A stretch of DNA of 64,000 nt, taken from NCBI GenBank assembly GCA_024405635.1, contig JAKSOL010000007.1:32001-96000 (forward strand). The letters run 5' to 3'. The notes beneath the pieces were generated by a model. The model was given only the letters and a program-made list of their open reading frames with translations, searched no databases and was not told the DNA's origin. The position numbers and the translations under genes are program-made. Positions 47,797-56,799 of this stretch are shown one piece after another. The stretch comes from Salinivirgaceae bacterium. GTDB taxonomy: Bacteria > Bacteroidota > Bacteroidia > Bacteroidales > SZUA-534. Positions within the stretch are counted from its first letter, which is position 1, and every line of letters begins with the position of its first letter.

Positions 47797-47831
47797 GTAT
47801 TATATAATGCTCAATCTAAGACAAGTAAAAC
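47797..47831. repeat. Repeat 1 (trailer, degenerate)
   Basis: GTATTATATAATGCTCAATCTAAGACAAGTAAAAC, 4 mismatches to consensus. Confidence 0.85.
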
Positions 47832-47875
47832 CATATCTACTCTTATCAACGGAAATGGACTAAAATGATGTGGAA

Positions 47876-48121
47876 TGTCTACTTTTGTAAAACTAAAACG
47901 CAGAAAAACAACGCCGATGTCTACTTCGGTAAATTATTAATTCAATAAAAAATTTTCTGTGTCTACTTTTTTGAGCTGGTACAAATTTTTTGGTCCAATG
48001 TTTTCATTACCGTCATTTTGATATCAATTTTCGAAAAAAGTTACTGTCATTTTGAGTAGATTTTCCAATATTTTTACCGTCATTTTGAAACTAAATCATA
48101 ATATTTGTACCGTCATTTTGA
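47876..48121 (+). repeat. Periodic short direct repeats upstream of the ATPase gene
   Basis: TGTCTACT at 47876/47918/47960 (42-bp period); TAC(C/T)GTCATTTTGA at 48008/48042/48075/48108 (33-34-bp period). Confidence 0.75.
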
Positions 48122-48139
48122 GCTCAATACTTATTTATC

Positions 48140-49486
48140 ATGGCCGAAATATATCAAAGAGAGGCATTGCAAAGCCTCAGGGAATGGAAGGAAAAGGCTG
48201 AACGCAAACCACTTATATTAAGAGGTCCGCGTCAGGTTGGGAAAACTACACTCGTGGATATTTTCTCAAAGGATTTTGAATCGTACGTTTACCTAAACCT
48301 TGAAATCGAGGAAAACGCAAAACTATTCGATACGAGCAAAAACATAAACGAGCTAATAACCTCGATATTTTTCATTGGCGGGCAAAAGATCAACAAGACA
48401 AGCAGCCTACTTTTCATCGACGAGATACAGAACTCGGCACAGGCTGTTATGATGCTGAGATATTTCTACGAGCAGGCTCCATGGCTTTATGTAATATCAG
48501 CAGGCTCACTATTGGAAAACCTTGAAAAAAGGAATATCTCATTCCCTGTGGGCAGAGTGGAATATATGGCTTTGCGTCCATTCTCGTTCAAGGAATATGC
48601 GTGGGCAAATCTAGGCGAGGATGTCTACAACGCCATCAACTCCGTATCCATACCAGAGGCTTATCACAGCAAGCTGATAAAGGAATTCAACACATACACA
48701 TTGATAGGCGGCATGCCAGAAGTGGTATCCAACTTCATAAAATACAAAGATATTCTGAAACTGAACGAGATATACGACACCCTGCTGACCGCGTATCGTG
48801 ATGACATAGAGAAATACGCTCCAAGAGAGAGCATAACCAAGGCAATGCGTTACATAATGGAACACGGTTTCCCATACGCGTCGCAGGAAATAGTATTGGG
48901 AGGCTTTGCAGGATCGGCTTACAAGTCAAGGGAAATCGGAGAGGCATTCTCGCTGCTATCAAAATCGATGCTAACAGAACTTGTGTATCCATCCACGTCA
49001 ACCGAGATACCGGCTCCTCCAGATATGAAGCGCAGACCCAAACTAATGTGGCTCGATACAGGAATAGTAAACTACGCCTCTGGCCTTAGGAAAGAGATAC
49101 TTGGCGCCAATGATATTCTCGACGTTTACAAAGGTAAGATTGCGGAACACATTGTAGGCCAGGAAATAATATCGACCGACAGCAGATGCTCTTTCCGAAG
49201 AAGCTACTGGGTAAGAAACAAACAAGGCTCTGACGCAGAAATGGATTTCACCTTACAGAAAGACAACAAGATGATCCCAATAGAAGTAAAAGCAGGAACC
49301 AACGCACACTTAAAATCGCTTCACATCTATATGGAAGAATCAGATCAGAATGTAGCCATCAGAATTTGGTCGAACCCGATGCAAATAGATGACATAAAAA
49401 CTCCGAAAGGCAAAACTTTCAAACTGATTAACCTGCCTTTCTACTATGTGAGCAAGATAAACGAGATTTTGGAAAAGGAGATATAA
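48140..49486 (+). CDS. AAA+ ATPase with DUF4143-type C-terminal domain (complete gene inside spacer 1)
   Basis: LRGPRQVGKTT Walker A, LFIDEIQ Walker B, GGMPEVV, EMDF...IPIEVKAG; AGA/ATA-rich codons unlike host genes. Confidence 0.9.
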   Translation: MAEIYQREALQSLREWKEKAERKPLILRGPRQVGKTTLVDIFSKDFESYVYLNLEIEENAKLFDTSKNINELITSIFFIGGQKINKTSSLLFIDEIQNSAQAVMMLRYFYEQAPWLYVISAGSLLENLEKRNISFPVGRVEYMALRPFSFKEYAWANLGEDVYNAINSVSIPEAYHSKLIKEFNTYTLIGGMPEVVSNFIKYKDILKLNEIYDTLLTAYRDDIEKYAPRESITKAMRYIMEHGFPYASQEIVLGGFAGSAYKSREIGEAFSLLSKSMLTELVYPSTSTEIPAPPDMKRRPKLMWLDTGIVNYASGLRKEILGANDILDVYKGKIAEHIVGQEIISTDSRCSFRRSYWVRNKQGSDAEMDFTLQKDNKMIPIEVKAGTNAHLKSLHIYMEESDQNVAIRIWSNPMQIDDIKTPKGKTFKLINLPFYYVSKINEILEKEI

Positions 49487-49494
49487 GAAAAAAA

Positions 49495-49547
49495 TCGGAG
49501 TTTTAGCGGAATCTATCTAAAAAGGGCACATTCCGCTAAAACTCCGA
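49495..49547. repeat. 18-bp perfect inverted repeat (terminator/REP-like)
   Basis: TCGGAGTTTTAGCGGAAT-17 nt-ATTCCGCTAAAACTCCGA just after the ATPase stop. Confidence 0.7.
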
Positions 49548-49705
49548 AAGGCAAATTTTTAATTATTTATCTGATATTGTGAAAATTAGGCTATGTTCTC
49601 AGCAAAATGAGGTAGGGCGTTTTTAGGGATTTTAGGGGAAGTTCGAAAAGGTGAATAACCTGCCTTTCTGGTATACGAGCAAGATTTATGTATCGTGATA
49701 CATAA

Positions 49706-49740
49706 GTTTTACATAATGCTCAATCTAAGACAAGTAAAAC
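49706..49740. repeat. Repeat 2 (variant)
   Basis: GTTTTACATAATGCTCAATCTAAGACAAGTAAAAC, 2 mismatches, both shared with repeat 1. Confidence 0.9.
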
Positions 49741-49974
49741 ATAAGCCATACCCAAATCGCCTTCGTCGATTATTATATTTTTCAATTGTTCGCCTGTAAT
49801 ACGACGTGTTTGCAAAGTTTCCCAACCAAACGGCAGTGTGCCGTCGTTGTTGGCTTGAATGTAGTTCACAGCCTTAACATTAAGATCAGTTCTTGTTTCT
49901 GCTTCGATACAGAAGTAAACATTTTCGTCGCCTTTTATACGAAAAAAATGTCGTTGAATGTCTATTAGTTTCAT
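49741..49974 (-). pseudogene. Hypothetical gene, 3'-truncated by repeat 2 (spacer 2)
   Basis: ORF MKLIDIQRHFF... runs into the repeat and only stops inside it (VLLVLD*). Confidence 0.6.
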
Positions 49975-50004
49975 AATTCTTGTTTTTATGTATTGTTTAG
50001 TTAG

Positions 50005-50193
50005 TTATTTGTTTATTTTTGCATCGAGTTCAGCGTCTTTATCGCTAAACAATGAATTGGCTTCCAACAGCGAGAGCAATTGTAGCTCTCCCATCGCGGA
50101 TAGCCAATTTTTAATTTTACGACTATCGTAATACCACACATTGTTAGTAGCAATAGATTGCTCTATTTTAGTACATATTTTATTGTCATTTTG
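50005..50193 (-). pseudogene. 3' end of a hypothetical gene, 5'-truncated by repeat 3 (spacer 2)
   Basis: 63 open codons QNDNKICTKIEQ...DAKINK* beginning at the repeat edge with no start codon there. Confidence 0.55.
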
Positions 50194-50194
50194 A

Positions 50195-50229
50195 GTTTTA
50201 CATAATGCTCAAACTCAGACAAGTAAAAC
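50195..50229. repeat. Repeat 3
   Basis: Exact consensus. Confidence 0.95.
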
Positions 50230-50285
50230 TAATACAGAACAAGTACAACGAACTTGTTAACCGCATGCAGGCGGTGGTCTTTTAG
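50230..50285 (+). pseudogene. 3' end of a HicB-like antitoxin gene (spacer 3)
   Basis: Encodes IQNKYNELVNRMQAVVF*, identical to the C-terminus of 52667-53062. Confidence 0.75.
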
Positions 50286-50438
50286 GACTTAATCAACATT
50301 AAGGCGGTGCTGCATTCACCGCTTTTTTTTTGCTTTTAAAAAAAATTTTGTAATTTTGTAGTGCTTTATAAGCATCCCTGGACTCGCTCCGAGATTGGGT
50401 TTGTGTCGAAAGGCTCATACCACCAAAGCCTAACAGTG

Positions 50439-50681
50439 TTAGGCTTTTTTTGTTAATGACGAGTTTGTTTTGATGACATTATAGCCGTCGTCAAAGTAAT
50501 AATATACCTTTATTTTATCTATATGCCACAAATTGTACAATGCGTTGATAGCCTTATCTGTATCAATACCTCTTTCTAAGCATTGCAACACGATTTCAGC
50601 CTTTTGATGATTTATGGCATAACGTGCTTTTTTTTCAATATTACCAGTTCCTTTGGTTTGTTTCAAATCTGCTGGAATGCC
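50439..50681 (-). pseudogene. C-terminal fragment of a CdiA-C-like PD-(D/E)XK nuclease (spacer 3)
   Basis: GIPADLKQTKGTGNIEKKARYA...; homologous to 51989-52488; cut by repeat 4. Confidence 0.65.
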
Positions 50682-50716
50682 GTTTTACATAATGCTCAAA
50701 CTCAGACAAGTAAAAC
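50682..50716. repeat. Repeat 4
   Basis: Exact consensus. Confidence 0.95.
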
Positions 50717-51128
50717 TTACAATACCCTTTACAGTGATGTTTTTTATGGTTGCACCGCTCGAATACCCGAATAATCCGATACTGCGTGTTTCAGCCGAAC
50801 TGTCAGCAACATTCATATTCGAAATGGTGTGGTTGTTGCCGTCAAAAACACCTTTAAACGGATTCCTTGCCTCGCCAATGCTAAACCACGGTTGATTGTT
50901 CAGGTCGATGTCCGCAATAAGTTTATAGTGCAAAGTATCAAATCCCTGTGTTCCGGCACTAACAACATACGACATAAACGCCAGTTCGTTAGCGGTTCCA
51001 ATAATATATGGCGACTCTTTGCTGCCATCACCTTCTGTGAATTCTTCCATGGCGCCTTCCCATGCGTCTGCCGCATGAGTGTTAATCACCGCCAACACCA
51101 TGACGATGCTAATGAATGTAATCTTTCT
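50717..51128 (-). pseudogene. N-terminal fragment of a secreted GLUG-type surface protein (whole of spacer 4)
   Basis: Frame is open across the entire spacer: signal-peptide-like RKITFISIVMVLAVINTHA, GDGSKESPYII, YKLIADIDL, FKGVFDGNNHTISN, GLFG. Confidence 0.7.
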
Positions 51129-51163
51129 GTTTTACATAATGCTCAAACTCAGACAAGTAAAAC
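51129..51163. repeat. Repeat 5
   Basis: Exact consensus. Confidence 0.95.
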
Positions 51164-51358
51164 TTTTAGATGTTTCAAATCGGAGGGCGAGAATTTGCCC
51201 ACCTCCGCCTTGTAAGTAACACGTGTTATTTTGCCGTTCTTTACGTAAAAAGAAACTTTTACTACATTGCCGTTCTTTACAGCGTGAACGTGAATGGGTT
51301 TGTGTTCGCCAGAATAGAACAAAATTTTTATTCCAAGATATTCGTATATTACAGGCAT
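51164..51358 (-). pseudogene. DUF4160-like (HicA-fold, putative toxin) gene, 3'-truncated by repeat 5
   Basis: MPVIYEYLGIKILFYSGEHKPIHVHA motif; the stop codon is supplied by the repeat. Confidence 0.7.
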
Positions 51359-51376
51359 AAATTAAAACTCCTTATA

Positions 51377-51697
51377 ATGATTATTTGTAATTCCCACGAA
51401 AGGCTTACTACTACTAAACGTTGCACAACAATGTGCATTAACAAGATTATTGCCGATTGTAAAGCATTTAAGATTGGCAAAACTGGCGACCCTCAAAGCA
51501 GGGCGGCCAATTATGGCGATTTTGACAAAATGTATCTTTTGGTTCAAAGCAAAAATTCGCTTCTGATTGATAGGCTTGAAGGCTACTATACCCAAAAGTA
51601 TTACGGCCATAAAAAAAATATGAATATAAACAGAGGTTCTGCGGCTGTTATGGCTTCTTCTCATAGGACTTACTATTTATATATTGTTGTCAAATAG
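51377..51697 (+). CDS. Hypothetical protein, possibly GIY-YIG-like (spacer 5)
   Basis: FKIGKTGDPQSR motif and a downstream LE resemble GIY-YIG nuclease cores; start uncertain (51377 or 51431). Confidence 0.45.
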   Translation: MIICNSHERLTTTKRCTTMCINKIIADCKAFKIGKTGDPQSRAANYGDFDKMYLLVQSKNSLLIDRLEGYYTQKYYGHKKNMNINRGSAAVMASSHRTYYLYIVVK

Positions 51698-51946
51698 GCC
51701 ATTATACATACTTAACGGATTTATGTCTGCTCCGTTGTCCCAAGTAACAATGCCGTCAACTACGCCAACTTTGGCAAATAATTCTTTGTCGATTAAGGCC
51801 TTAAAAACTGGGAAATAGCCTTTTTGTATGTTGTTTTTTAGATAGCATATTTTTTCTGTGCCATCATAAAATTGCACTTGTAAGGCATATTCGTCTATGT
51901 TATATACTTTAACCGACTTCACATCAAAAAAGGCTTTTTCCTTCAT
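51677..51946 (-). CDS. DUF2442-like putative antitoxin (complete, spacer 5)
   Basis: LQVQFYDG, VFKALID..LF, IVTWDNGADINP. Confidence 0.75.
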   Translation of the reverse strand: MKEKAFFDVKSVKVYNIDEYALQVQFYDGTEKICYLKNNIQKGYFPVFKALIDKELFAKVGVVDGIVTWDNGADINPLSMYNGLFDNNI

Positions 51947-51953
51947 TGTTTTG

Positions 51954-51988
51954 GTTTTACATAATGCTCAAACTCAGACAAGTAAAAC
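51954..51988. repeat. Repeat 6
   Basis: Exact consensus. Confidence 0.95.
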
Positions 51989-52488
51989 ACGATATTAGCA
52001 ATATTAGTGAGTTGGCTGAAAATCGTGCAGAGTTCATGGCGTATGCGACAAATCCTGATTATACATCTACGTTCGACACTGGCAGCGGTGGTTTCTTGGC
52101 TAAACATAACTCACGAATACCTAACGACTCAACGTCAAAGAACGATATAGAGAAGTATGAGAAAGAAATAAGAATGTGCGATGTATTCGTAAAGGCTGGG
52201 CACAAGATTGTTTACAAAGAAGATGTCCAAGGGGAGTATGATGTGTTATTTGACGGAATTCCAGCAGATTTGAAACAAACCAAAGGAACTGGTAATATCG
52301 AGAAATACGCAAGGTACGCCGTGAAGAGTCAGAAAGCAAAAATGGTGCTTTTTTGTTTGGAAAAGGACATAAATAGAAACAAAGCGGAGGAGGCACTAAG
52401 AGCGTTGTATATAGTAGATAAAATCAAAGTGTTGTATTATTATGAGGACAATACGAATGTTGTTTTGTCTAATAAATCACTTCTATAA
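51989..52488 (+). pseudogene. C-terminal CdiA-C-like PD-(D/E)XK nuclease domain (MuF/polymorphic-toxin type), 5'-truncated, in frame with the ATG inside repeat 6
   Basis: E...YDVLFDGIPADLK...KSQKA pattern; the ORF-track N-terminus MLKLRQVK is repeat-encoded. Confidence 0.6.
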
Positions 52489-52666
52489 AATAGAAAAGCC
52501 CAACAATAACATTGTCAGGCTTTTAGTGGTACGAGTCTTTCGACACGTACCCTATCTCGGGGCTAACCCAGGGACTGCCATTTAAGACACTACAAAATTA
52601 CAAAATTTTTTATAAAAGCAAAAGAAAAAGCGGTGAATGCAGCACCGCCTTAATGTTGATTAAGTC

Positions 52667-53062
52667 CTAAAAGACCACCGCCTGCATGCGGTTTACAAGT
52701 TCGTTGTACTTGTTCTGTATTATTGCTTTCTGCTTGTCCGATACTGGTACAAGTTTACGTTTGTATTTGCGCATCATTGCTGCGTTTAGACCTATTTCCT
52801 TGGCGAATGCTGTGGCGTTGATAAATGGAAATTGCTCAAAGAACCCAGATATGTCGTACACGTATTCTACTGCGATATTGTCACTATACCAATCTGGGTA
52901 TTTCCCTGTTTGTTCCATGTGGTATTTGGCTTGCTCAACCATAACTTCCTCGAAGCATGTTTTAGCCTCTTGTTCTGTCATGCCACTGCCGTACACGCCT
53001 TGCGCATCGTTGGTGTAAATAGCAAAACCTCCGTCTGCGCCCCTCTCAATAACTGCTTTCAT
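52667..53062 (-). CDS. hicB: HicB-like antitoxin with C-terminal HTH (complete, spacer 6)
   Basis: MKAVIERGADGGFAIY...GSGMTEQEAK; YVYDISGFF..FPFINATAFAKEIGLN. Confidence 0.75.
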   Translation of the reverse strand: MKAVIERGADGGFAIYTNDAQGVYGSGMTEQEAKTCFEEVMVEQAKYHMEQTGKYPDWYSDNIAVEYVYDISGFFEQFPFINATAFAKEIGLNAAMMRKYKRKLVPVSDKQKAIIQNKYNELVNRMQAVVF

Positions 53063-53131
53063 GTTCGTTTAGTTTTATCATTGTTCTTTAAAAAAAAAGT
53101 TGAACTGCCCCCCACTAAGGGGAGCAGCGTT

Positions 53132-53147
53132 CTACTTTAGTCCTGCG
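53132..53147 (-). pseudogene. Last codons of a probable HicA toxin gene, cut by repeat 7
   Basis: Reads GCA GGA CTA AAG TAG (AGLK*), a typical HicA C-terminus, just upstream of hicB. Confidence 0.5.
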
Positions 53148-53182
53148 GTTTTACATAATGCTCAAACTCAGACAAGTAAAAC
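53148..53182. repeat. Repeat 7
   Basis: Exact consensus. Confidence 0.95.
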
Positions 53183-54047
53183 GGCTAACGCTTTTTCAAA
53201 GGCAATTACCGAGCGCGAAGTCCGCAAAACCGACAAGTATGCTGCCGAGATTAACGCCATTAAAGGCAAGTTGCTCGACTTTATCAACAAAGGCGCTGAA
53301 ATTAAAGATTCGCACTTTGACAAATACAACGATATTGCTAACAAACAAGTGTTGCACCCATTTGTAAAAATTGTGCGTGCTTACATTAAGATTAACGGCA
53401 AAGAAAACGTTAAAAAGCAAGCCAACACCATTTGCACCAACATTGCAAATCTTTGCAAAGTATTGCCAGCCGATTTTGAATTTATGGCACAACTTAAAGC
53501 AATTGAAAAAAGCTTAAACAACTACATTGAGGGCAAAACAGCAACGCCTAAAATGTTGCAAACCGAATTAAGCGGTTTAGGTCGCATTGCCGATAACGAC
53601 GAAGATGCAAGCACTGCATATTTAGTTACTCTATCAAGAAAAGAAGTGTACGAAGATGGTTACAGAGATAGTGAAACATTGCTAAAATCTAACGACTACA
53701 ATGCCGCTATTGCATTTTTTAATGACAAGAAAAAGCAATTGCAAAATATGGCAGAAGATGATGTTTGCGATTATGATTTAACTATGTGGGTAGGCGACTA
53801 TGAGGATATTGTAGAAGAAGAATTTGCAGATTTTATAGGAGAACCAACCGATGGTTATGCGGTTTTAATTAAAGACAGCCATGGTTACTTAATAGAAAAT
53901 GGCGATGGAAAAACCGAAAGGGATTTTGTGCTCGAAGATTGTAAGGTAAAATTAGTTAAGAAAGACGAATTAACAGACGAAATACAAATTAGTTTTGGAT
54001 TTCCAAAACGATGGGTAAAATTAGGTTTAATACCTTCAAGATTATAA
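53183..54047 (+). pseudogene. 3' part of a large hypothetical phage/MGE gene, 5'-truncated by repeat 7
   Basis: Frame is open from the repeat edge; the ORF-track N-terminus merely reads through the repeat (VLHNAQTQTSK). Confidence 0.6.
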
Positions 54048-54062
54048 GATATAACTAACAAC

Positions 54063-54094
54063 AAAAAAGCCGCGCTTAAAGGCGTGGCTTTTTT
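54063..54094. terminator. Bidirectional terminator inside spacer 7
   Basis: AAAAAAGCCGCGC-TTAAAG-GCGTGGCTTTTTT. Confidence 0.7.
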
Positions 54095-54225
54095 ACTTTG
54101 ACAAGGCAAAGTACCTTGATGGCGCAGGGGCGTTAATCAATATTTCAGCCTAACGACAACGTCCGAAACGTATTCCCTGATTGTCCGATGCAAGTATAAG
54201 GAAAAAATATATACACAAACAAGAT

Positions 54226-54702
54226 ATGCGAGAAAAAATAATAGAATATATCAAAAAGGCGTGGAACGGCGAAAAATGCAGCAGATTGCTGGATATAACC
54301 AGTGCAATTGACATACAAGCACTGGAAGTTGCAAATAGTATAATTGATAAATTAAACGAAATACAAGATAGAGAAAAATACGACCACATTAAAAAAGTTA
54401 AAATATATGCAGTCGATTTTGATCACACAAAAGAAAGACATTTTGGTGCAAATGAAACAAGGACAGACCAAATACCTTTAACATTTGATGATATACCTTT
54501 GTTAGTCGATACTTTATTGTCGCCGCAATTGGTAAGATTAGGAACATTACGCCAAGATACAGGAGCAGGAATACACTTTATTAGCCAGTTGGATAATGGT
54601 AAAATGATTTGCGTACTAATAAAAGTTAAGCCGCAAAAAGAAACTTATAAAAATAGAACAATATATAAAAAGAAATTAAAAGATGGAAGCAAGAATAGTT
54701 GA
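54226..54702 (+). CDS. PBECR-like (phage Barnase-EndoU-ColicinE5/D-RelE) putative nuclease
   Basis: HTKERHFG..E....QIPLTFDDIPLLVDTLLSP pattern and C-terminal TIYKKK. Confidence 0.5.
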   Translation: MREKIIEYIKKAWNGEKCSRLLDITSAIDIQALEVANSIIDKLNEIQDREKYDHIKKVKIYAVDFDHTKERHFGANETRTDQIPLTFDDIPLLVDTLLSPQLVRLGTLRQDTGAGIHFISQLDNGKMICVLIKVKPQKETYKNRTIYKKKLKDGSKNS

Positions 54703-55532
54703 TTTTTATATGGTAGAAAACACCAATAAGGACAAACGCCTACGCTTAATGAAAATGAAAGCGCTTGCACTGGCTGAACCGCTTGACGGTTTAGCCACAA
54801 CCAAGTGTGCTAACAATCAACCTGCCGATATTGTTAATCGATATTTGGATTTACTCGATAAGCCAACACGCGCCGCCGCAATGGGCGTTTTGTCGTCGGT
54901 TGAGCGCTTTATTGAGCAAGCCGATAATAATTACCCTTATATGGCTGAATTTGCGGCTATGGCTGTAAGTTTGAGCGATTATATTAACGAAGAAACGGCA
55001 ACACCACAAATTGCAGCCATCGACCTTAATAACATTCATAAAATATCAGGCGTTAATGTTGATAATAGCGAATTAAAAGGCATTGTAAGTAGTAAAACGC
55101 TGCTTGCTCATCAGTTTGAGCCGCTGAACTTTGGTGGTAAGTGGAAACTGTTATTTGGTCGCCCAACCGCGCCTTTTAAGGTAATGGTACACGGAGCGCC
55201 CGGAAATGGCAAATCAACTTTTGCTATACAATTCGCTAAATACCTTGCCAGCAGCCACAAGTTGCGTGTATTGTATATTGCTAATGAAGAGAGTTTTACA
55301 TACACCTTTCAGGAGAAACTTATGCGCCTGAACGCAATAGACGACAACCTGAAAATAGCCGATTCGCTACCTGATAACTTTGACGATTATGATGTAGCGT
55401 TTTTCGATTCAGTAAACACAATGAAACTCGATATTGACGATTTACGACGAATATTCAAACAAAACGACAAAACTTCGTTTGTGTTGATTTTTCAAAACAA
55501 CAAGAAAGGTCAATTTAGGGGTTCGCTTGAGT
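54683..55532 (+). pseudogene. Phage/MGE P-loop ATPase (RecA/Sms-like), 3'-truncated by repeat 8
   Basis: VMVHGAPGNGKST, VLYIANEE, AFFDSV, KKGQFRGS; the stop codon lies inside the repeat. Confidence 0.7.
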
Positions 55533-55567
55533 GTTTTACATAATGCTCAAACTCAGACAAGTAAAAC
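55533..55567. repeat. Repeat 8 (leader-proximal)
   Basis: Exact consensus. Confidence 0.95.
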
Positions 55568-55617
55568 AGACTATTGGCTAATTTATTGAATAAGAGTATA
55601 CTATCATTGGTTTGCTG
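55568..55617 (-). promoter_or_regulatory. Putative 50-bp AT-rich CRISPR leader
   Basis: Non-coding gap between the cas2 stop and the first repeat; contains ATTCAATAAATTA (55591-55579), one mismatch from the IHF consensus. Confidence 0.5.
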
Positions 55618-55938
55618 TTAAAAAAAATCAATCAAATCGGGCTTTTTTAGCAAAATCTCGTCATTTTTTCGTTTCTGTTTTCGTCCAAAATAATGGTAAG
55701 AAGCTTCGTTGTGTTTGTCATCTACCACTACTACACTTATTTGGCATTTGCCGCAAATAGCTTCCATTATTCGCTTTTTATGAACTAATGCGTTGGCCAT
55801 AGAGTAACAATACCGTATATATAGATTGGAGTATAACTTATTGAATCCGTCCTTCTCTAGTTGACGCGAAAAATTCTTTTTACATTCCTTGCCTGTTGAT
55901 GTGCGGTTGGAAATGTTCATAAAAACGTAAATCCACAT
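55618..55938 (-). CDS. cas2: CRISPR-associated Cas2 (type II-C-like, divergent)
   Basis: MWIYVF..., F..QLEKDGF..LYSNLYIRYC...NALVHKKRI; 3 bp downstream of cas1; Asn at the usual catalytic Asp position. Confidence 0.8.
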   Translation of the reverse strand: MWIYVFMNISNRTSTGKECKKNFSRQLEKDGFNKLYSNLYIRYCYSMANALVHKKRIMEAICGKCQISVVVVDDKHNEASYHYFGRKQKRKNDEILLKKPDLIDFF

Positions 55939-55941
55939 AAC

Positions 55942-56799
55942 TTAAAACAATGAAGGGTAATATATTACACGTCGCTCACCTAAGTAAATCTGCGATAGCG
56001 AATAAGTTGTTTGTGACACATCGTCGGGTTTTATTGACTCGTAGAATAGCTCCAAAATGGCTTTTTTGAAGTTGTGGTCAATGCATCTTTGGCCGATGGT
56101 GTATAGTTCAAGCACTTTTTCGTCAACAAATGGTCGATATGGTTCCATAACATCGTCGCTCAACGGAAAGGAGTTGTATCGGTTTTTATGAAAAACACCA
56201 ATCATTGGCAATAAACCTGAATTCATTAGCGCACGCGATACTACCGACCGCAAAATGGCATATCCGTAGTTTAGCATATCGTTGGGACAATTGCCGTAAC
56301 GGTCGCGTATAAAATCTTTGCCTAGCAAAAGTTTCCAATATGTTGCGGCTGCCAAAGCCTCGCGATTTGTTGTGTCGCCACTTTTAACATTCTTATGGTA
56401 CTTGCTCAACACATCTTCTCCCTTGCCCAATTTTTGTAGCAATAGCGACTGGTTGTGTATCTTATGTTCTATTATCTGTTTCCAGATTTGTTTTCTAACG
56501 GGTTCTGTTGTCGCTAACTGCGCGTTAAAGGTCATTGTTTGCCGTACGTTTGACTCTAAGTCTAAAGTCATGCTTACGGGCATGTGGCGCTCGTCGCAAA
56601 AAACTATGCTTATGTTGTTTTGAGACAACTTGTTAAGCAGTGGCACAGTGATGCGTACCGAATGGTTATCGACTAAAATACCCGACACGTCCTCTAACGA
56701 ACGCATGATTGGGTCTTTATCTTCTTGACAAATTAAAAGCTGCCCATCTTTCAACGATAGATCGGCTTTGTTTTCAAATACAAGTGTTTGTTTTGGCAT
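55942..56799 (-). CDS. cas1: CRISPR-associated Cas1 (type II-like)
   Basis: SGDTTNREALAA..YW, NDMLNYGYAILRS, GVFHKNRYNSFPLSDDVMEPYRPFVD; catalytic E/H/E appear retained. Confidence 0.93.
   Translation of the reverse strand: MPKQTLVFENKADLSLKDGQLLICQEDKDPIMRSLEDVSGILVDNHSVRITVPLLNKLSQNNISIVFCDERHMPVSMTLDLESNVRQTMTFNAQLATTEPVRKQIWKQIIEHKIHNQSLLLQKLGKGEDVLSKYHKNVKSGDTTNREALAAATYWKLLLGKDFIRDRYGNCPNDMLNYGYAILRSVVSRALMNSGLLPMIGVFHKNRYNSFPLSDDVMEPYRPFVDEKVLELYTIGQRCIDHNFKKAILELFYESIKPDDVSQTTYSLSQIYLGERRVIYYPSLF

Follow-up and report, generated by a model that had tools for sequence, protein, structure and literature searches.

Why should one array hold the same gene junction twice, in opposite orientation and in two clearly different versions? 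The question is raised by a locus on contig JAKSOL010000007.1 of a Salinivirgaceae bacterium, of which a stretch of 64,000 nucleotides (nt), hereafter the window, was analysed; spacers, repeats and genes are given as positions in it. The locus consists of 35-nt direct repeats beside cas1 and cas2 genes and of long units between the repeats, which are here called spacers and numbered from the cas-distal end. The junction in question, where the 3' ends of a toxin-domain gene and a hicB-like gene face each other, is found in spacers 3 and 6. We consider it likely that it entered the array through two separate repeat-duplicating insertions, an older one leaving spacer 3 and a younger one leaving spacer 6, and that it was taken from related but distinct phages in either orientation.

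A first-pass annotation had described spacer 3 as a reverse-complement homolog of approximately 52255-52722 in spacer 6, and the full-length local alignment agrees with it over exactly this span: all 452 nt of spacer 3, reverse-complemented, pair with 52255-52722, and 360 of the 479 columns are identical. In a repeat search of the window, five inverted-repeat pairs join 50230-50683 to 52253-52722, among them the arms 50230-50349/52603-52722 (120 nt, 93%) and 50551-50683/52253-52385 (133 nt, 74%). BLAST of spacer 6 against the host genome (2.66 Mb, 99.78% complete) has spacer 3 (76% identity, E 2.3e-86) as its one match besides spacer 6 itself, and no further copies of either variant were found elsewhere in that genome. 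The two spacers are different repeat-bounded units with spacers 4 and 5 in between. The parts of the junction are as follows.

50230..50285, plus strand: last codons and stop of the hicB-like gene in spacer 3, 55/56 identical to spacer 6
50439..50681, minus strand: last 80 codons and stop of the toxin-domain gene in spacer 3, cut at the spacer edge
51991..52488, plus strand: toxin domain in spacer 6, open from the left edge of the spacer, the gene being 5'-truncated
52255..52722, no strand: segment of spacer 6 homologous to spacer 3, from local alignment
52667..53062, minus strand: complete hicB-like antitoxin gene of 131 amino acids in spacer 6, with similarity to phage HicB

Identity is distributed as a mosaic. 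The first 44 nt, inside the toxin gene, agree at 43 positions, the middle at 183 of 296, and the last 139 columns at 134, the hicB 3' end with its stop lying within the latter; over the intergenic region 136 of 178 positions are identical. The first-pass annotation had noted near-identity at the hicB end and the terminator followed by divergence in the nuclease gene, and the peptides that it quoted for both variants are correct, but the near-identity at the far end had been overlooked. Two terminator-like hairpins stand between the toxin gene and hicB (52489-52666 and 50286-50441), and an intergenic block at 52522-52574 is approximately 80% conserved and has a stem of 6 base pairs. The Rfam search of this intergenic stretch gave no family, its sole result being a chance microRNA match.

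The toxin pair carries a record of how the two versions came to differ. Over 77 aligned codons the proportion of synonymous differences (pS) is 0.74 and that of nonsynonymous differences (pN) 0.28, and past the first 15 codons pS reaches 0.90. Residues are identical in 48 of the 80 columns of the toxin alignment, and both frames are open up to stops at equivalent places. Synonymous sites are thus near saturation, with the nonsynonymous rate (dN) well below the synonymous one (dS), and the two copies are diverged alleles of one gene junction. They diverged as working genes before capture and not by decay of a local duplicate, because a promoterless fragment without half of the catalytic residues cannot be under such selection.

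The gene had been called a nuclease gene; more exactly, the frame in spacer 6 is a toxin domain from the C-terminus of a phage MuF-type protein, its 5' side cut by the spacer edge. An exhaustive profile search gave 202 relatives at E<=0.001, and in many of them the match forms the C-terminal end of a protein of 380-880 residues. Among 12 relatives that were scanned, Phage_Mu_F matched in five at E<=1e-3 (two above the Pfam cut-off) and CdiA_C in seven (all below the cut-off); a glutamine deamidase toxin domain was also present in two, and one had no match at all. The spacer 6 frame itself matches phrog_23416 at positions 270-391 of 459. All 40 sequences of an alignment agree in G34, R42, E59, D84 and K95. 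An AlphaFold model of the domain (predicted local distance difference test score 95.9) finds its best solved match by Foldseek in the CdiA-CT toxin 4g6v_A (E 1.2e-5, all 132 target residues covered), and the next matches are the Hef/XPF/Mus81 and FokI nuclease domains. The model points to a restriction-endonuclease-like (PD-(D/E)xK-type) fold with conserved acidic and lysine residues, and the domain is a predicted nuclease. The fragment in spacer 3, which begins after D84 and has neither E59 nor D84, cannot be functional, because the spacer edge cuts just after the first invariant Asp. Searches of PDB sequences with the toxin domain and with HicB gave no match, and no immunity gene for the toxin was recognised. 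Similarly to MuF-type polymorphic toxins and CdiA-CT (PDB 4g6v), then, the sequence is a C-terminal domain with Phage_Mu_F in its relatives, the CdiA-CT fold and invariant E...D...DxK-type residues; unlike them, the array holds, as dead cargo, the domain alone in spacer 6 and no more than its final 80 residues in spacer 3.

The other side of the junction also leads to phages. Although the HicB families of Pfam and NCBIfam did not match the protein encoded at 52667-53062 at their thresholds, it is 64% identical to a protein that directly follows HicA (PF07927, E 1e-15) on a viral contig bearing also an integrase, a MuF protein and a portal, and 57% identical to the annotated HicB after HicA in Bacteroides phage BS-TP2. 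It thereby resembles the HicAB pairs of Bacteroidales phages, from which spacer 6 differs in that hicA is absent beside the hicB-like gene.

In the course of events that we favour, the sources would be a pair of temperate phages or comparable mobile elements, related to each other but distinct, and each insertion would have copied the 3' end of the MuF-type toxin gene, the two terminators and the convergent hicB, the fragments being inserted in opposite orientation. Cas1-Cas2 would have integrated the units at the cas-proximal repeat, duplicating it each time and measuring no fixed length, and DNA ends near the packaging-gene region possibly favoured the sampling of this stretch. Recurrent exposure, and not effector-guided priming, would account for the repetition, because no effector was found to take part. 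Repeated sampling of a family of related phages or mobile genetic elements had been proposed in the first-pass annotation; the phage-like gene content and the separation into two units agree with it, while the two distinct donors, of which none was recovered, are what we infer. Nothing else within the array speaks as clearly as this pair for units that were sampled independently from outside DNA and against rearrangement.

Donors were sought in several ways, as the first-pass annotation had suggested for viral, plasmid and metagenome collections. No donor was found by blastn of spacer 6 against phages and plasmids, by comparison of the toxin protein with viral contigs or by tblastn of the toxin against phages; three exact conserved DNA patterns had no match in viral contigs, and HicB-guided scans of viral and metagenome contigs led only to the relative with 64% identity. 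When longer proteins were sought by word matching with the fragments of spacers 6 and 3, only the frame of the window itself came back, and the whole array compared with 400 genomes of the order gave nothing above 84% identity, and short stretches only. A 551-nt contig of run X2 covers 52588-53125 at approximately 98% identity with 5 other letters and holds hicB and the terminator. It has the one-base deletion of spacer 3 at 52624 and leaves spacer 6 to the left of 52588, where spacer 3 diverges too, and could represent a third version of the junction.

Several points weigh against the reading of two insertions by Cas1-Cas2. A donor of spacer 3 or 6 is lacking in every collection searched, Cas1-Cas2 is identified as the inserter from the architecture only, and the adjoining Cas2 scores 17.3 bits on TIGR01573, where the cut-off is 24.5.

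The alternative that survives best, although we consider it unlikely, is a single donor element with two diverged paralogous toxin-hicB junctions, each of them sampled separately. The missing donor leaves room for it, and polymorphic toxin loci often bear extra, diverged C-terminal modules. Such an element, however, would need the whole junction to be duplicated, since the near-identical part spans the hicB end and both terminators, and only a single hicAB pair is present on the viral contig with the related HicB and in the approximately 10 kb around hicB of BS-TP2. Two donors rather than one element with two copies are therefore our inference.

A clearly poorer candidate is that spacer 3 is a second capture from the donor of spacer 6, the middle of which was later replaced by recombination with an infecting relative. 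Such a replacement would leave high identity at the ends only, as is seen in spacer 3 (43/44 and 134/139, with 62% in the core between them), and inserts of hundreds of bases do offer homology to incoming phage DNA; but one homology arm would measure just 44 nt, the ends differ from spacer 6 at 1 and 5 positions, and mosaicism among the donor phages accounts for the pattern without the extra step.

Very improbable in our view is effector-guided (primed) acquisition, which the first-pass annotation had also put forward and in which an earlier spacer against the phage family would have directed a second capture nearby. Two spacers from the same locus of related invaders would fit such a process, but priming needs an effector, and the search for one was negative. 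Cas9 (TIGR01865) has no match in the host genome, while the same search detected it in assemblies G439 and G002; no Cas3 lies above the cut-off there, a single Cas1 is present, a k-mer scan of the genome found no conventional CRISPR array, and no anti-repeat of a trans-activating CRISPR RNA was seen in the flanks of the array, where scores did not exceed the shuffle mean. No interference effector was thus found in searches for Cas9 and Cas3; the control of the Cas12a search was unmatched, and Cas10 and Cas13 were outside the search.

Local inverted duplication of part of spacer 6 within the array followed by drift, which the proximity of the copies (1.6-2.3 kb apart in one locus) might suggest and which the first-pass annotation had rightly set aside, is hardly credible, since the divergence is strongly uneven, the synonymous sites are near saturation with dN below dS and with neither frame interrupted, a repeat delimits the copy exactly on either side, and the six identical cas-proximal repeats together with the 100% identity of spacer 4 to its source make the array far too young for drift of approximately 40%.

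What kind of array would take up such units? The repeat is present in eight copies with 4, 2, 0, 0, 0, 0, 0 and 0 mismatches from the cas-distal to the cas-proximal end, and had no family in Rfam at E<=0.1. The genes adjoining it and the elements of the array are listed below (strand is given where assigned).

47797..47831: repeat 1, farthest from the cas genes, degenerate, 4 mismatches
47832..49705: spacer 1, 1874 nt, with a complete AAA_14/DUF4143 ATPase gene at 48140-49486, plus strand
49706..49740: repeat 2, 2 mismatches
49741..50194: spacer 2, 454 nt, with a minus-strand frame of 84 amino acids that continues into the repeat
50195..50229: repeat 3, exact
50230..50681: spacer 3, 452 nt, inverted diverged homologue of 52255-52722
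50682..50716: repeat 4, exact
50717..51128: spacer 4, 412 nt, 100% identical to G000:C14:45931-46342
51129..51163: repeat 5, exact
51164..51953: spacer 5, 790 nt, with a DUF4160 gene whose 3' end enters the repeat and a complete DUF2442 gene
51954..51988: repeat 6, exact
51989..53147: spacer 6, 1159 nt, with the toxin domain and the hicB-like gene
53148..53182: repeat 7, exact
53183..55532: spacer 7, 2350 nt, with a 5'-cut frame, a complete frame of 173 amino acids and a 3'-cut phage-type ATPase (phrog_6891)
55533..55567: repeat 8, exact, adjoining cas2
55568..55617, minus strand: putative leader, from the cas2 stop to the first repeat, in a block conserved in relative G426
55618..55938, minus strand: cas2, divergent, 106 amino acids, adjoining cas1
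55942..56799, minus strand: cas1, type II, 285 amino acids, TIGR03639, catalytic residues conserved

The array does not have the uniform short (~30 nt) spacer length of CRISPR arrays. Its units are copies of arbitrary DNA fragments and not cassettes, because unit ends cut frames (an open frame is cut at 9 of the 14 spacer ends, as read from the open reading frames) and spacer 4 stops 412 nt into its source gene. That source lies on contig C14 of the same genome and is the 5' part, from the base after the ATG, of a gene for a repeat protein secreted by the type IX secretion system. The gene stands just downstream of MobC/NikA and relaxase genes, and therefore in a resident mobilizable element. 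Copying from mobile elements is accordingly seen for spacer 4, by its relaxase-adjacent source, and for spacers 6 and 7, by their phage-type genes. Contigs of other runs that match spacer 4 part from it exactly at the spacer edges and go on into different sequence, which is what the source gene should do.

An assembly artefact is excluded as the origin of the array: contigs of runs X3 and X5 independently hold the repeat with spacer 5 (that of X3 with both flanks), a separate X3 contig spans spacer 1 into the next repeat, and the same layout occurs in four other assemblies. No conclusion follows from parts of the array, such as spacer 6 in X3, that the contigs of other runs leave uncovered. 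Upstream of the ATPase gene of spacer 1 there are four tandem copies with a period of 33-34 nt, each ending ACCGTCATTTTGA, at 48000-48121. Two further copies of the array repeat were seen (L007, L131): a degenerate one (7 mismatches) at G000:C5:66901-66935, 250 nt from the end of C5, and a near-exact one (1 mismatch) at G000:C8:646-680, 645 nt from the start of C8 and beside GNAT acetyltransferase genes. They probably represent a second, cas-less long-spacer array broken by assembly.

The adjoining Cas1 scores 284.5 bits on TIGR03639 (cut-off 120, E 8e-85), and its residues E147, H204, D215/D216 and E219 are invariant among 48 Cas1 sequences. Long units beside Cas1-Cas2 recur in four other assemblies, which brings the collection to 28 long spacers of 153-2563 nt in five genomes.

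G426, Cas1 identity 94%: units of 572, 233 and 598 nt
G150, Cas1 identity 55%: units of 409, 232 and 342 nt; second array with 246, 176 and 585 nt
G694, Cas1 identity 53%: units of approximately 430, 278, 304, 348, 590, 1669 and 388 nt; second contig with 927, 2563 and 153 nt
G439, Cas1 identity 49%: units of approximately 558 and 2252 nt

In these assemblies the neighbours of Cas1-Cas2 are housekeeping genes and not Cas9. Cas9 is absent from the whole assemblies of G150, G426 and G440, and in G439 it is present on another contig. A Cas1 tree of 48 sequences, from which the partial G426 row was dropped, sets the window, G150, G694, G439, L010 and L044 apart from 42 other Cas1 by a branch with 100/99 support. 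Among those 42 sister rows, arrays with a period of 65-66 nt accompany 34 and the remaining 8 have no array in the fetched flank; the spacers of sister loci measure 29-30 nt, and the one sister locus examined bears Cas9 and a canonical Cas2. The sequence available at L010, L044 and L091 is too short for the array type of their Cas1 to be recognised. Five Cas1 of the long-spacer group (window, G150, G694, G439 and L010) have in common an 8-residue C-terminal deletion near window residues 255-265, these residues being kept in L044 and in all 42 ordinary type II-C Cas1. The Cas2 partners of the group score in part at or below the family cut-offs (window, L089): on Pfam PF09827 (cut-off 23.8), L011 with 28.5 and L043 with 24.4 pass and L089 with 17.9 stays below.

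The best explanation places the array in an offshoot of the type II-C adaptation modules that has no Cas9 and inserts hundreds to thousands of bases. The wider proposal, for which we see about equal reason to believe and to doubt, is that a Cas9-less clade of type II-derived Cas1-Cas2 in gut and rumen Bacteroidales copies 0.15-2.6 kb of phage, mobilizable-element and host mobile DNA between duplicated 35-nt repeats without a ruler. If so, spacers 3 and 6 would be direct evidence that one phage family was sampled repeatedly and in either orientation, and the array's contents might exert an effect via long antisense RNA, via homology to incoming DNA or in the role of captured genes. In the literature searched, subscription journals and supplements excepted, arrays of a type II Cas1-Cas2 without Cas9 whose spacers run to hundreds or thousands of bases are not described. 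The length of spacers is held to be built into the Cas1-Cas2 integrase. A lineage of arrays with units 5-80 times longer and with the effector lost would contradict this, and it would be a sign of a natural pair of enzymes able to insert kilobase DNA at a defined site.

As for G694, the last 200 nt of one of its long spacers (L089 9238-9438) recur at 95% at G694:C82:8647-8844, likewise ending at a repeat, and the second contig has a slightly different repeat variant; either the array is duplicated or a variant strain was assembled along with it.

With the type II-C adaptation modules of Bacteroidales the locus shares a type II Cas1 with its catalytic residues, a small cas2 gene next to it, and 35-nt direct repeats that are identical near the cas genes and decay with distance. 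Shared also is a spacer content that differs between relatives: the cas1-cas2-leader-first repeat block is 90% identical in the window and G426, and yet their spacer content is wholly different, with no spacer in common. Unlike those modules, the array has spacers of 412-2350 nt instead of 29-30 nt, its genome is without Cas9 and anti-repeat, its Cas2 is divergent and its Cas1 carries the C-terminal deletion. Acquisition of several spacers from one invader is known, as primed adaptation in type I and from hot spots at free DNA ends in type II-A. The two memory units from the same short stretch of related invaders are comparable, but here no priming effector was found, and the units measure 452 and 1159 nt and overlap by 452 nt.

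Casposons, in which a casposase of the Cas1 family is tied to kilobase DNA insertion and target duplication, resemble the locus in the association of such an integrase with inserts of this size and with duplicated target sequence. They differ from it in that Cas2 is present here and in that the inserts, which have no terminal inverted repeats or polymerase gene, are random gene fragments stacked as an array at one site. Integron cassette arrays are similar in having gene-sized units, several with toxin-antitoxin-type genes, separated by repeats and adjoined by an integrase-type gene. The units are nevertheless not integron cassettes, given the cut frames and identical 35-mers in place of variable attC hairpins, and the adjoining enzyme is Cas1, not a tyrosine recombinase. 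No tyrosine recombinase family matched in the 17 neighbouring frames scanned, a search that did not extend to IntI genome-wide.

The spacer 3/6 pair and the exact self-copy in spacer 4, which supplies a protospacer with known flanks, make the mechanism of acquisition directly testable. The flanks of spacer 3 had been proposed by proxy from spacer 6 and were read correctly from it: CAGAAAGCAA before and GTCAAATAAC after. For the spacer 4 protospacer, in window orientation, the left flank ends CTTCTTTTTGATT and the right flank begins CATAATTTTTGAAG. The suggested protospacer-adjacent motif did not emerge, for the four available flanks (exact for spacer 4, by proxy for spacer 3) have no motif in common; a signature was found inside the spacer ends instead. 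When both ends of the 28 long spacers of the five genomes are pooled (window, L105, L089, L132, L043, L133 and L011; some repeat edges in G694 and G439 being approximate), 39 of 56 ends have A at position 4 counted from the spacer end, where the background is 0.30 (p 9e-10). The signature is symmetric, 5'-NNNA...TNNN-3', and suggests end-specific selection or trimming of the captured DNA.

Two kinds of joints in contigs of runs X2 and X3 concern spacer 7. In one, 49740, the end of repeat 2, is joined to spacer 7-like sequence from 54075 (side 29, likeness 88), and in the other 578 nt of spacer 7 (53550-54129) are skipped, with 8 other letters between (side 24-29, likeness 88). They hint weakly at relatives of the donor of spacer 7, either captured with different edges or circulating in variant form.

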